A DNA stretch of 64,000 nt. It comes from Escherichia coli (GTDB taxonomy: Bacteria > Pseudomonadota > Gammaproteobacteria > Enterobacterales > Enterobacteriaceae). Within the stretch, counting starts at the first letter, position 1; each line of letters starts with the position of its first letter. Location: the NCBI RefSeq assembly GCF_009931435.1, contig NZ_CP043414.1. The stretch is one strand, 5' to 3'. Made by a program: the position numbers. Of this stretch, positions 28,601-40,600 are shown piece after piece.

Positions 28601-31600
28601 GCACATGTGCACGAAAAGCCCTCCACACCGCCTGGCAATATTACTGCGCTGGTTATTTATCTGCTTTCCTGCTGGCGGGCGTATAAGTTTCGCAAAATGT
28701 TGTGTAAAAGCCAGCAAGGCTATCTGCTCATCACCGACCGCTACCCGCAGGTTGAAGTGCCGGGTTTTCGCTTTGATGGCCCGCAACTGGCAAAAAACAC
28801 GGGCGGTAACGGCTGGATAAAAATGTTAAGACAGCGCGAGCTCAAACTTTACCAATGGATGGCGTCTTATTTGCCCGTATTGTTGATTCGTCTTGGCATT
28901 GATGAACAAACCGCGTTTGCGCGTAAACCTGACCACCAACTGGCGGCGTTACAGGAAAAAATCGCTGTTACGCCGCAACTGACATTCAATGGCGCAAAGA
29001 TCCTTGAACTGGATGGTCGGCAACCAGCCGATGAAATTCTGCAAGCGTCACTACGCGCAATTCACGCCGCGCTTTCCTGATCACCAAATGGATAGGGGAT
29101 GATTTAACGAATGGATGCACTACAAACACAAACTGTTAATAGTACAACCGCGCCGCAGCCCAACTACATTCCGGGGCTGATTGCGGTGGTCGGGTGTGAT
29201 GGCACCGGTAAATCCACACTGACCACTGACCTGGTGAAATCGCTGCAACAACACTGGCAAACCGAGCGCCGCTATCTGGGGCTGCTCTCCGGCGAAGACG
29301 GCGACAAAATCAAACGGTTGCCGCTCGTTGGCGTCTGGCTGGAACGGCGACTGGCGGCCAAATCCTCGAAAACCCAAAGCATGAAAACCAAATCTCCGGC
29401 GCTATGGGCGGCGGTGATTATGTACTGCTTCTCGCTGCGAAGAATGGCGAATCTACGCAAGGTTCAGCGACTGGCGCAAAGTGGCGTTCTGGTGGTCAGC
29501 GATCGCTTCCCGCAGGCTGAAATTTCGGGCTTTTATTATGACGGACCGGGGATTGGCGTCGAGCGTGCGACCGGGAAAATCAGCATGTTTCTGGCACAGC
29601 GCGAACGGCGTTTATACCAAAAAATGGCGCAATACCGTCCTGAATTAATTATTCGTTTGGGGATTGATATTGATACTGCCATCTCCCGCAAGCCTGACCA
29701 TGACTATGCCGAGCTGCAGGACAAAATCGGTGTCATGTCGACGATTGGCTATAACGGCACAAAAATTCTTGAGATTGATTCCAGAGCGCCCTACAGCGAA
29801 GTGCTGGAACAGGCACAGAAGGCGGTTTCTCTGGTTGCAATCGTTTCTGACCGCCGAAGTTTAACTTAAGGTTGGCGGGATACTTTTTACTATCAACGAT
29901 AAGGTCAGGCTGAATTGGCGGGGTTTAACATCAAACATTGGTTTGCAGATGGCGCGTTTCGCACCATTATTCGCAATAGCGCCTGGTTAGGCTCCAGTAA
30001 TGTCGTGAGCGCTTTGCTGGGTCTGTTGGCGCTCTCGTGTGCCGGTAAAGGGATGACGCCCGCCATGTTTGGCGTACTGGTGATTGTGCAATCGTACGCC
30101 AAGTCGATCAGCGATTTTATTAAGTTTCAGACATGGCAGCTGGTGGTTCAGTACGGAACGCCAGCCTTGACCAATAATAATCCGCAGCAATTTCGCAATG
30201 TCGTCTCATTTTCCTTCTCGTTGGATATCGTCAGCGGCGCGGTGGCGATTGTCGGCGGCATTGCCTTACTCCCTTTTCTTTCCCATTCATTAGGTCTGGA
30301 TGACCAAAGCTTTTGGCTGGCAGCGCTGTATTGCACGCTCATTCCTTCAATGGCTTCCTCCACACCGACCGGCATTCTGCGTGCGGTAGATCGCTTCGAT
30401 TTGATTGCTGTACAGCAGGCGACGAAACCTTTTCTGCGCGCAGCGGGGAGCGTCGTAGCCTGGTATTTTGATTTTGATTTTGGTTTTGCGGGTTTTGTTA
30501 TTGCCTGGTACGCATCGAATCTGGTTGGCGGCACCATGTACTGGTGGTTTGCCGCGCGCGAATTACGCCGCAGAAATATCCATAACGCCTTCAAATTGAA
30601 TTTGTTTGAGTCTGCCCGACACATTAAAGGCGCGTGGAGTTTTGTCTGGTCAACCAACATTGCCCACTCCATCTGGTCGGCACGTAACTCGTGCAGCACA
30701 GTGTTGGTGGGGATCGTGTTAGGACCCGCTGCCGCCGGGTTATTTAAAATCGCCATGACATTCTTCGATGCCGCCGGAACGCCAGCGGGTTTACTGGGCA
30801 AAAGTTTTTACCCAGAGGTGATGCGTTTAGATCCGCGCACCACCAGACCGTGGTTGTTAGGCGTGAAGTCCGGTTTACTGGCGGGCGGAATCGGTATTCT
30901 GGTGGCGCTCGCGGTGTTGATCGTCGGCAAGCCGCTCATTTCGCTGGTGTTTGGCGTTAAGTATCTCGAAGCGTATGACCTGATTCAGGTGATGCTTGGC
31001 GCAATTGTGATTTCGATGCTGGGCTTCCCACAGGAGTCATTGCTATTGATGGCGGGAAAACAGCGCGCTTTTCTCGTGGCGCAAACCATCGCCTCAATCG
31101 GCTACATCGTATTGCTGTTCATGTTCTGTCATCTGTTTGGCGTGCTGGGGGCTGCATTTGCTTACTTCGGTGGGCAATGTCTGGATGTGGTGCTCTCGTT
31201 AATTCCAACCTTAAAGGCATTTTTTCAGCGCCATTCCTTGCTTTATAACGCAGCCGGAGAGAAATCCTGATGATGAGAAAATATTTCCCGCTTGAGGCGA
31301 GCGAGCGTCTATTTATTGCAGTTGAAGAAGATGATGTCGTTGATGCGCAGGTCAGTTTACCGCCGACTATCGCAACAGGTTGTACCACCGAAATCATTCA
31401 TGATAATTACGCGTTATGCCTGCAATTCTGGCTGAATGGCGTTGATCGTCAGGAATTACTGCGTTTAATCCACAAACAAGCCAAAGGCGAGGGGCTTACG
31501 GCTGACGAGCGTAAACAGTTTAAATATATGCGGGCGCGTTATAAGCATCTACGTTTTGCCCAACGGTTGTATTTAAAAAAGCATCAGGCCGGATTTTTAT

Positions 31601-37600: not shown

Positions 37601-40600
37601 TAACCGTCCAGCAGATAACCGAGGTCGCCGGTATCTAACCAGCCCGTCGCGGCAATCTCGTCTTGCGAAACCTGGTCGCCAAAGTAACCGCTCATCAGGC
37701 TGGGGCCGGAGATGCAAATATGGCCTACCACACGTTCCGCGACCGGCATACCTGCTTCATTGCGGATTTCAATGCCATGTTCCGGCAACGCTTTACCGCA
37801 GTTGACGAAAGTCGATACGGCGCGTGTTTCAGCACCCGGCGCGACGGCTTTGCCCTGATATTCAAGGATGTCGCGATCCACTTCGTTAACCACAACCCCG
37901 GAGGCTTCATCAGAGAAGCTGACAGCCAGCGCATTTTCTGCCAGTCCGTAGCACGGCATGAAAGTTTTATCGTCAAAGTTAACCTGACGGAAACATTCAG
38001 CGAATTGATGGAGTTGTTCTGCGGAGATCGGCTCAGCACCAATACCAGCAACGCGCCAGCAGGAAAGATCCAGTTCAGCGAGATCTTTTTCATTCACGCG
38101 GCGCTGGCACAATTCATAGCCAAACGGCGGCGCAACAGAAACGGTGCCGCGATTTTTACTGATCAATTTAAGCCATTGCAGAGGACGCATGGCAAAATCC
38201 TGAGTGCGCAAATAATCTACTGAGAGCTGCGTGGCGACGGGGGTCAGGAGAAAGCCGACCAGTCCCATATCATGGTAGAAAGGCAGCCAGGAGACGCAGC
38301 GGTCGCCAGGGCGTAATTTAATGCCATCGTGGCTTATAGCACGTAGATTAGCCATCACTTCGCGATGGGTGATAATGACGCCACGGGGAAAACGGGTGCT
38401 GCCGGAGGTGTACTGGAGGTAGGCGATATCGTTCGGAACTGGACGCTGGAGTACAACATCGGCTTCCGGTAATGCCTTAAACCAGGCGTGGCTTAAAACA
38501 TGTAATTCGGGGTTGTTATGCGTAGCAGCATTGACCAGTGGCAACCACTCATCACCAGTGATAATGGCTGCGGGCTGGCAACTTGCCAGTAAACCCTGCA
38601 GTTTGGCGCTCCAGGAATCCCGCTGACCGACGCCCATTGGAATTGCCAACGGGACGGCGACTAAGCCGGCATACTGGCAGGCAAAAAAAGCCTCTACAAA
38701 CCCGCTACTCGTTTCGGCAATCAGCGCCACGCGATCGCCTTTTTTCAGATTCAGTGATAACAACCGCTTCGCACCAGCTTCGGCACGCGCTTTTAACGTC
38801 TGATATTCCAGTTGATCTTCAAGTTGGCAACGTCTGTCATAAAAATTCATTCCGGCGCTACTCAGAGCGGCGTAGTCCAAAGCATCAACCAGCGTTGGAA
38901 AATCGGCATAGCGCATAGGTAGGGAATGCGTAAAGATGTTATTAGACATATACACCACGAAAAAAATTGGATATCAGAAATAAAATGACAATAATGCGGT
39001 GGATTATATAGGCATAAAAGATAAATGAGATAGTATTTTCATCGGTGCGATATTGAACATTGATTTAAATAATAGGTTTGGCTTTGTTGTTTTTATTGTG
39101 AATGATATTTAATTTATGAATATATTAAGAAGAAGCCTTGTTTGGTTGCCTTAAATCGACAAAAGGCATTGAGGCGCTTCTGTGTAGTCTCTGACCTTAT
39201 CTTAATTATTAATAAATACTATTTATTCTTTGTTTGTATTCATTGGGTTGATTATTAAGATGCCGTTCGTTGCTGTTGCAATCTGTTTGTCACCGTTAAT
39301 TATTTGTTATCCACAGAGATATGGAATGCGATCTGCTGATGATTAAAATTGAAAAAGTAATTAATAAAAATGACCTTAAGGCATTTATCGCTTTTCCGTC
39401 ATCACTTTATCCCGATGATCCAAACTGGATACCCCCTTTGTTCATTGAACGCAGCGAGCATTTGTCGGCGAAGAATCCGGGGACGGACCATATTATCTGG
39501 CAGGCGTGGGTAGCAAAAAAAGCGGGGCAGATAGTCGGGCGGATTACCGCGCAAATCGATACCTTGCACCGCGAGCGTTACGGTGACGATACCGGTCATT
39601 TTGGCATGATTGACGCCATTGATGATCCGCAGGTTTTTGCCGCGTTGTTTGGCGCAGCGGAAGCATGGTTGAAGTTACAAGGCGCAAGTAAGATCAGCGG
39701 GCCTTTCAGCCTGAATATCAATCAGGAAAGCGGATTACTGATTGAAGGTTTCGACACTCCGCCCTGTGCGATGATGCCGCACGGTAAACCGTGGTATGCC
39801 GCGCATATTGAACAATTGGGTTATCACAAAGGTATTGATTTACTGGCGTGGTGGATGCAACGAACCGATCTCACGTTCTCTCCGGCGCTAAAAAAACTGA
39901 TGGATCAGGTGCGCAAAAAGGTGACCATTCGCTGCATCAAGCGCCAGCGGTTTGCCGAAGAGATGCTGATCCTGCGTGAGATTTTCAACTCTGGCTGGCA
40001 GCACAACTGGGGATTTGTGCCGTTTACCGAACATGAATTTGCGACCATGGGCGATCAACTTAAATATCTGGTGCCGGACGATATGATCTACATCGCTGAG
40101 ATTGGTTCTGCACCCTGCGCGTTTATAGTCGGCTTGCCGAACATCAACGAGGCGATTGCCGATCTGAACGGATCGCTCTTTCCCTTCGGCTGGGCAAAAT
40201 TGCTGTGGCGCTTAAAAGTCAGCGGTGTGCGAACTGCGCGAGTGCCGCTGATGGGCGTGCGTGACGAGTATCAGTTCAGCCGCATCGGCCCGGTGATTGC
40301 GCTGTTATTGATTGAAGCCTTACGCGATCCGTTTGCTCGCCGGAAGATCGATGCGCTGGAGATGTCATGGATCCTCGAAACCAATACAGGCATGAATAAC
40401 ATGCTGGAACGCATTGGAGCGGAGCCGTACAAGCGTTACCGATTGTATGAAAAGCAGATTTGATGGCAGTCACCCCTGCTTCATCTCCAGCGGCACCGCC
40501 GAGCGAATCAAATGGTGGCCTTCCAGTTCGATATCGTGGAGATTCTTTTTCACGGTCCGCACATGATCACGTGCGGCGCGCTGGGCGACGTGCGGCAGTC

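Follow-up and report, generated by a model that had tools for sequence, protein, structure and literature searches.

Gene content of the locus

The window analysed here is a stretch of 64,000 nucleotides of Escherichia coli DNA (NCBI RefSeq assembly GCF_009931435.1, contig NZ_CP043414.1). Between positions 27501 and 40463, it carries thirteen genes in the order yghT, yghS, yghR, yghQ, orf274, ytfJ2, lptF2, lptG2, spt, acpR, cerR, aasR and yghO, which very probably form a locus for the synthesis of a ceramide-based lipid and for its transport to the outer membrane, the core of this locus having been lost in K-12 through a deletion tied to the insertion sequence (IS) IS5. A preliminary description of the window had proposed that a segment between yghQ and yghO is missing from K-12. 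The eight genes that it had reported there, from orf274 to aasR, are present and intact (31270-38949) as open reading frames without internal stops. Its statement that the segment is free of IS elements holds as well: the 99.3%-identical, colinear RefSeq record of strain R32_14_1F shows no transposase in the segment, and the window contains no match to the terminal repeat of IS5.

All five genes of the proteobacterial ceramide set (Spt, AcpR, AasR, CerR and bCerS) appear to be present in the window, as judged from their sequences. The product of spt (34877..36049, minus strand) scores 599 with the NCBIfam equivalog for serine palmitoyltransferase (SPT; cut-off 500) and lies far nearer to the SPT structures of Sphingomonas than to either KBL or BioF, the PDB search giving an E value of 4e-112 for the former against 5e-59 for KBL, the nearest α-oxoamine synthase that is not an SPT. 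The pyridoxal phosphate-lysine motif TFSKS and the histidine-bearing motifs DADSHAS and VDEAHS are conserved in the alignment. Immediately upstream of spt lies acpR (36049..36297, minus strand), whose stop overlaps the spt start and whose product, a dedicated acyl carrier protein (ACP), matches ACP families and carries the serine of a DLGLES motif; Serratia sp. M24T3 possesses, besides a full cluster, an extra acpR-spt pair on another contig (loci L011 and L023). The presumed ceramide reductase gene cerR, also called epi (36329..37243, minus strand), encodes an NDUFA9-like extended short-chain dehydrogenase/reductase (SDR) whose relatives in the PDB are NDUFA9 or 39-kDa subunits of complex I and an NAD-dependent epimerase/dehydratase, and which is 34% identical to the product of the gene at the same position in Caulobacteraceae. 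The fatty acyl-AMP ligase gene aasR (37240..38949, minus strand) scores 873 with its NCBIfam model (cut-off 600). The fifth gene, yghO (39321..40463, plus strand), is the candidate bacterial ceramide synthase gene (bCerS or 'aca'): its product has no match in Pfam, in NCBIfam or in a sequence search of the PDB, and, over 375 aa, shares 41% of its residues with the protein encoded at the bCerS position of a Caulobacteraceae locus (hidden Markov model E value 3e-154).

The cluster in BL21, B7A and UTI89 is already known, as is the IS5 at yghO, and the earlier view that the locus had not been characterized is out of date. The BL21(DE3) genes ECD_02850-02854, those of enterotoxigenic E. coli B7A and the UTI89 operons are the same locus, to which the window allele is 96-97% identical in DNA. 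A 2022 study (PMC9386255), in which AcpR, AasR and SPT were assayed, names the BL21(DE3) genes aca (yghO, ECD_02850), aasR (ECD_02851), epi (ECD_02852), acpR (ECD_02853) and spt (ECD_02854), and assigns yghO as an N-acyltransferase gene homologous to CC_1154 (CCNA_01212). In this work, BL21(DE3) AcpR bears a 4'-phosphopantetheine, BL21(DE3) AasR acylates AcpR(Ec) in vivo, and the E. coli AasR, AcpR and SPT proteins together yield 3-oxo-sphinganine (PMC9386255). The operons of UTI89, with lptF2 and lptG2, are drawn in a 2026 preprint (10.64898/2026.04.12.717747), and the 99.3%-identical RefSeq record already names spt at the locus.

Candidate transport genes occupy the middle of the cluster. 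The yghQ gene (29915..31270, plus strand, with a TTG start at 29915) encodes a MOP-family flippase of 451 aa with a weak NCBIfam match to MOP flippases, about eight hydrophobic segments and 33% identity to the flippase whose gene precedes aasR in a Caulobacteraceae locus; yghQ of the window exceeds those of K-12 and R32_14_1F by 6 bp (two codons). The paired genes lptF2 (32696..33766, plus strand) and lptG2 (33763..34842, plus strand) encode a second LptF-type and a second LptG-type ATP-binding cassette (ABC) permease, which score 323 and 307.5 with the NCBIfam LptF and LptG models (cut-offs 230 and 240) and lie inside the sphingolipid locus. The locus has no annotated ABC ATPase (LptB); an LptC-like gene is likewise absent from the annotation of the thirteen genes, and the NCBIfam matches include no LptC family. 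According to the preprint cited above, lptC2 is confined to Caulobacter, where LptF2 and LptG2 bind LptB and where this counterpart is implicated in sphingolipid export. The periplasmic YtfJ-family protein encoded by ytfJ2 (32106..32666, plus strand) scores 209 with TIGR01626 (cut-off 151) and has a hydrophobic, putatively signal-like N-terminus (residues 1-25); its gene always adjoins orf274 in the Enterobacterales loci.

Upstream of yghQ, three paralogous genes kept in K-12, namely yghT (27501..28193, minus strand), yghS (28367..29080, plus strand) and yghR (29111..29869, plus strand), encode thymidylate-kinase-like P-loop proteins, which possess a Walker A motif and share 33-43% identity. 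In YghT, this motif reads GSDGSGKST and is accompanied by the motifs DRYPQ and ARKPDH. The best PDB folds for its AlphaFold2 (AF2) model (pLDDT 83.5) are thymidylate kinases, with a TM score of about 0.6 and about 20% identity, and its profile matches the PDB thymidylate kinases with an E value of 3.5e-6; confidence is low over the divergent stretch of the model that matches residues 40-80. For the three proteins, the Pfam family Thymidylate_kin (PF02223) gives E values of 0.019-0.17, 1e-3 being reached by only 3 of the 19 family members. YghR has weak AAA and Thymidylate_kin matches only, and a PDB sequence search gave no match for it. As the Pfam matches are below threshold, the RefSeq name 'dTMP kinase', attached to YghS, is probably over-specific for YghT, YghS and YghR. 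Two other identities were considered for these proteins and rejected: a ceramide kinase of the Caulobacter type, as CpgB is of the LCB5/DAG-kinase type and not a P-loop kinase, and a PPK2-like polyphosphate-dependent kinase, as sequence and fold searches favour thymidylate kinase. The yghT gene travels with spt in at least 20 Enterobacterales loci.

The product of orf274 (31270..32094, plus strand; UniProt Ybl138) appears to be a soluble, all-helical and CHAD-like protein. It has no match in NCBIfam, nor in Pfam even at E ≤ 10, so that the CHAD model PF05235 does not recognize it; a sequence search of the PDB returned nothing, and Foldseek against the PDB returned generic helical bundles only, none below an E value of 0.1. 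Its all-helical AF2 model (pLDDT 91.8) has matches in AFDB50 with TM scores of 0.9 and above and 28-42% identity, which are models annotated 'CHAD domain-containing' from Sphingomonas, Zymomonas, Acetobacter, Gluconobacter, Komagataeibacter and Pseudomonas. This is a small family, of 323 representatives when clustered at 50%. In two distant genomes, orf274 lies in one block with the genes of a YghQ-like flippase and of two YghT/S/R-like proteins. A distant homologue (P0237, 976 aa, positions 10001-12931 of locus L064) with a faint PF05235 match is fused to an APH-type domain, similar to aminoglycoside and choline kinases, and this fusion would link the orf274 fold to kinase chemistry.

The K-12 deletion and its IS5 junction

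When the K-12 locus is compared with the window by blastn, the homology of strain DH10B is limited to 25000-30989 and 39361-46000, and the MG1655 junction is identical to that of DH10B. The shortfall of K-12 amounts to about 8.37 kb, from 30986/30990 to 39360, its left end being ambiguous over 30986-30990, and in place of the interval 30986-39360 stands a single complete IS5 of 1195 bp with both terminal repeats. The alignment bears out the proposed loss through an IS-associated deletion: K-12 does not carry the intact genes at this site, IS5 is located exactly at the gap and both border genes are truncated. The limits first given for the segment, 31270-39320, stand as gene boundaries; as ends of the deletion they do not, these ends falling inside yghQ and yghO.

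On the left side, K-12 follows the window through ...CCTGATT (30985) and then reads TAG where the intact alleles have CAG, the codon of Gln358 of YghQ in the window, before entering IS5. On the right side, homology restarts at TTAATAAAAATG (39361). The element is flanked by TTAG on the left and by TTAA on the right, both of which resemble IS5 target sites when compared with the published target consensus, and there is neither a direct repeat nor a 4-bp target-site duplication. With a complete IS at the gap and colinear flanks, these unduplicated ends fit an IS-linked deletion and not a simple insertion. The TTAG site could have arisen from an ancestral C-to-T variant; a search for such a variant gave none among the genomes with an intact locus.

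The deletion takes about 94 C-terminal codons of yghQ and 40 nt at the 5' end of yghO, that is, its first 13 codons. In the K-12 RefSeq annotation, yghQ is flagged as pseudo ('missing C-terminus') with 355 codons kept, and the start of YghO lies within IS5, the native 14 residues being swapped for 12 residues read from the element. Of the 5426 complete E. coli genomes, 347 have a left junction of the K-12 type and 353 the corresponding right junction; among the matches listed, the carriers of the left junction are K-12 laboratory derivatives. The right-junction matches of MLI110 and MB06021 consist of two joined pieces each, and MLI110 represents a separate IS5 deletion. These junctions were counted in search of an intermediate that would combine an intact locus with an IS5 at the K-12 site, and none was identified among the matches listed.

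An IS5-associated event in the K-12 lineage has very probably taken out the DNA from about codon 358 of yghQ through codon 13 of yghO, either by an adjacent deletion or by the recombination of two IS5 copies, a later point change being also conceivable. It left behind a group of orphan y-genes, namely yghT, yghS, yghR, the truncated yghQ' and yghO, the last of these as a chimera. The element itself has been catalogued as the 'yghO' IS5 of BW25113. Like the other K-12 genes disrupted by IS5 (wbbL/rfb-50, yhiS, ykfC, nmpC, yejO), the locus combines a lineage-specific lesion, an envelope-related function and a resident IS5; unlike them, it shows no 4-bp duplication and has lost 8.37 kb beside the element. 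No paper tying the K-12 gap to sphingolipid genes was found in the literature searched, and the terms 'K-12' and 'IS5' do not occur in the text of PMC9386255. A published K-12 study takes yghQ (b2983) for an intact flippase gene and a candidate marker of chlorhexidine resistance, and reports variant clusters in yghQ and yhiS after adaptation to chlorhexidine. According to the published IS5 list, both genes border IS5 copies in K-12, and the variants called there may therefore be read-mapping artefacts.

Distribution, ancestry and repeated loss

The 8.37-kb segment is covered to at least 80% in 4063 of the 5426 complete E. coli genomes, a rough frequency given the biased sampling of complete genomes. 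E. whittamii, E. albertii and two further Escherichia species share the order hyb-gss-pitB-yghTSRQ...yghO-glcCD. The segment is 96-97% identical to its counterpart in most E. coli, and the identity between the window and K-12 is 96.4% and 95.3% in the two flanks. The synonymous divergence (dS) of the cluster genes, 0.13-0.69, is comparable to that of pitB and glcD (0.40-0.50), and the GC content is 0.499 for the segment against 0.519 for the window. Neither an integrase, nor a tRNA gene, nor flanking repeats were found at the segment in the annotation of the near-identical record and in a repeat search. The occupation of the same site in other Escherichia and a divergence equal to that of the flanks indicate that the locus is ancestral to Escherichia and that K-12 is the derived state, in agreement with the earlier suggestion of an ancestral rather than imported locus.

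The locus has been removed in other strains by other events. In MLI110 (NZ_CP117010.1, locus 10493-12348), a second, independent IS5-linked deletion begins within yghT and reaches the spacer between aasR and yghO, with yghO itself preserved at full length. In O157:H7 TR01 (7946-18181 of L059), IS3/IS66 elements truncate pitB at its 3' end; with the island that follows them, which bears nleE and a fragment of a TcdA/TcdB-like glycosyltransferase, they occupy the place of the entire cluster. In a dog isolate, an IS1 is found just within orf274.

The window itself belongs, by its identity to sequenced genomes, to an unusual E. coli lineage, the closest strain being the goat strain R32_14_1F: its stretches 12000-20000 and 27000-44000 are at least 99% identical to only 6-9 of the 5426 complete genomes, and 95-99% identical to the others.

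A unit of thirteen genes

All thirteen genes occur together in at least nine other genera, namely Citrobacter, Pseudocitrobacter, Hafnia, Pluralibacter, Serratia, Sodalis, Mangrovibacter, Pantoea and Rosenbergiella. Their four sub-blocks follow one another in at least three distinct arrangements across the Enterobacterales. The recurrence of kinase-like, flippase and orf274 genes as a block in two distant genomes also favours a single unit. For each gene, the ratio of non-synonymous to synonymous divergence (dN/dS) is 0.02-0.16, across Escherichia and in the comparison with Citrobacter. A membership kept through rearrangement, combined with such ratios, argues for one selected function and for a functional unit of thirteen genes, newly recognized here, which extends beyond the published ceramide and lptF2/lptG2 genes. 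The preliminary description had placed the core of the locus in the 8 kb absent from K-12. This is correct for the gap; the unit is larger, and the yghT, yghS, yghR, yghQ' and yghO' that survive in K-12 belong to it as remnants. The accessible parts of the published accounts of BL21, B7A and UTI89 deal with five to seven genes, leave yghT, yghS, yghR, orf274 and ytfJ2 outside the unit and make no link between the K-12 gap and IS5.

A model for ceramide-based lipid synthesis and export

The locus of Caulobacter crescentus (CC_1152-CC_1168) combines spt, acpR, aasR, cerR/epi and bcerS/aca with the flippase gene CC_1166, lptF2/lptG2/lptC2 and cpgABC. The window shares with it the five dihydroceramide genes, the MOP flippase, LptF2 and LptG2, the position of acpR directly upstream of spt, and the lack of a dedicated LptB. 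The window has no counterpart of LptC2, CpgA (PgsA-like), CpgB (an LCB5 kinase) and CpgC; conversely, its three thymidylate-kinase-like proteins, its CHAD-like protein and its YtfJ paralogue were not found in the retrieved Caulobacteraceae locus. Since the accessory genes differ from those of Caulobacter, the head group should differ as well.

In the model we propose, AasR would place a fatty acid on the dedicated carrier AcpR, and SPT would join the acyl-AcpR with serine to give 3-oxo-sphinganine, two steps demonstrated with the BL21 orthologues in published work. By homology with Caulobacter, YghO (bCerS) would N-acylate this product and the SDR CerR would reduce it to dihydroceramide; the flippase YghQ would then flip the lipid to the periplasmic face, and LptF2/LptG2, driven by the housekeeping LptB, would extract it towards the outer membrane. 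The conserved linkage suggests that YghT, YghS, YghR and the CHAD-like orf274 protein could build or modify a phosphate-containing head group and that the periplasmic YtfJ2 could help the transit of the lipid. We advance more tentatively, and at odds somewhat below even, the complete picture of a hitherto undescribed phosphorylated sphingolipid of E. coli and of many other Enterobacterales, with a head group made through YghT/S/R and orf274 rather than CpgABC and an export through YghQ, LptB2F2G2 and YtfJ2, of which yghQ, yghR, yghS, yghT and yghO of K-12 would be the leftovers.

Several observations weigh against the proposed synthesis and export locus. The literature searched holds no report of a sphingolipid from unmodified E. 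coli, and BL21, which carries the locus, gives no detectable 3-oxo-sphinganine with empty vectors (PMC9386255), which points to a low or absent native expression in the laboratory. Counterparts of CpgABC are missing, and we infer the roles of YghT/S/R, orf274 and YtfJ2 from linkage and fold. About one quarter of the complete genomes are without the segment through several independent IS events, and in E. albertii CP126908.1 yghQ has an internal stop (8661-9998) and ytfJ2 is frameshifted into two frames (10837-11392); in view of these repeated losses and pseudogenes, the locus is dispensable. Concerning the deletion, the T of the K-12 TTAG next to the left IS5 end is present in no genome with an intact locus.

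In another reading, the cluster would make no membrane sphingolipid but, for instance, an amino-lipid signal derived from serine or a modification linked to lipopolysaccharide (LPS), with the Lpt-like and 'LPS biosynthesis' genes acting on LPS. This is suggested by a native product never observed, by the RefSeq labelling of genes as LPS proteins and by yghT/S/R, orf274 and ytfJ2, which are unlike every characterized sphingolipid head-group pathway. We nevertheless regard it as unlikely, because orthologues of all five Caulobacter dihydroceramide genes are present, because the SPT is much nearer to proven SPTs than to other α-oxoamine synthases and because the E. coli enzymes together make 3-oxo-sphinganine (PMC9386255). 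About equally improbable in our opinion is a silent relic in the course of being lost from E. coli, its function no longer maintained and K-12 being one loss among many. The independent deletions by IS5, IS1 and IS3/IS66, the pseudogenes of one E. albertii strain, the silence in BL21 and control regions of 30% GC would agree with such a decay; on the other hand, the low dN/dS of all thirteen genes, the intact state of the locus in three quarters of the complete genomes and the full set kept across genera despite rearrangement speak for maintenance.

The reverse polarity, in which the segment would be an island acquired by strains other than K-12 and K-12 the original empty state, seems to us very improbable. 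The locus is variably present among E. coli, and homologous clusters in scattered genera, even in Pseudomonas, indicate a module that is mobile between lineages. However, the truncation of both yghQ and yghO against an IS5 devoid of target duplication refutes a gain in practice; moreover, the site is filled in E. albertii, E. whittamii and other Escherichia with a divergence equal to that of the flanks, and no integrase, tRNA gene or flanking repeat was found. 

The textbook view of E. coli as a sphingolipid-free bacterium was largely built on K-12, the reference strain of lipid biology. K-12 is the exception, three quarters of the complete genomes retaining a selected thirteen-gene locus for ceramide synthesis and export. 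Five orphan genes of K-12 are explained as the leftovers of this locus, and phenotypes assigned to yghQ or yghO in K-12, such as the chlorhexidine marker, should be taken with caution as they are not those of the intact genes. The production of a sphingolipid by E. coli, and the identity of this lipid, can now be put to a direct test. The remaining interest of the locus lies in its native lipid and in the four accessory families.

Control regions and the neighbouring pitB gene

Three control regions have a GC content of about 30%: 25663-25952 upstream of pitB, 28194-28366 between yghT and yghS, and the divergent control region between aasR and yghO (38950..39320, no strand, defined by its composition). 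The pitB and aasR/yghO regions have in common the 12-mer TGAATATATTAA inside a 29-nt repeat that is 79% identical, which could be a common regulatory site or a chance similarity in AT-rich DNA. Under laboratory conditions, the locus may not be expressed. The Rfam scan of 25000-42000 revealed no family, the promoter and terminator scans gave no sites above those of shuffled sequence, and the repeat search over the locus found only short two-copy matches; a single strong-looking terminator is located between pitB and yghT (27462-27490).

The flanking phosphate transporter gene pitB (25953..27452, plus strand) may have a link to the module. It adjoins yghT in Escherichia, Citrobacter, Pseudocitrobacter and Hafnia, and in Pluralibacter it is found on the other side of the cluster, about 1.2 kb past yghO. 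This persistence near the cluster hints at a functional link between phosphate transport and the thirteen genes.

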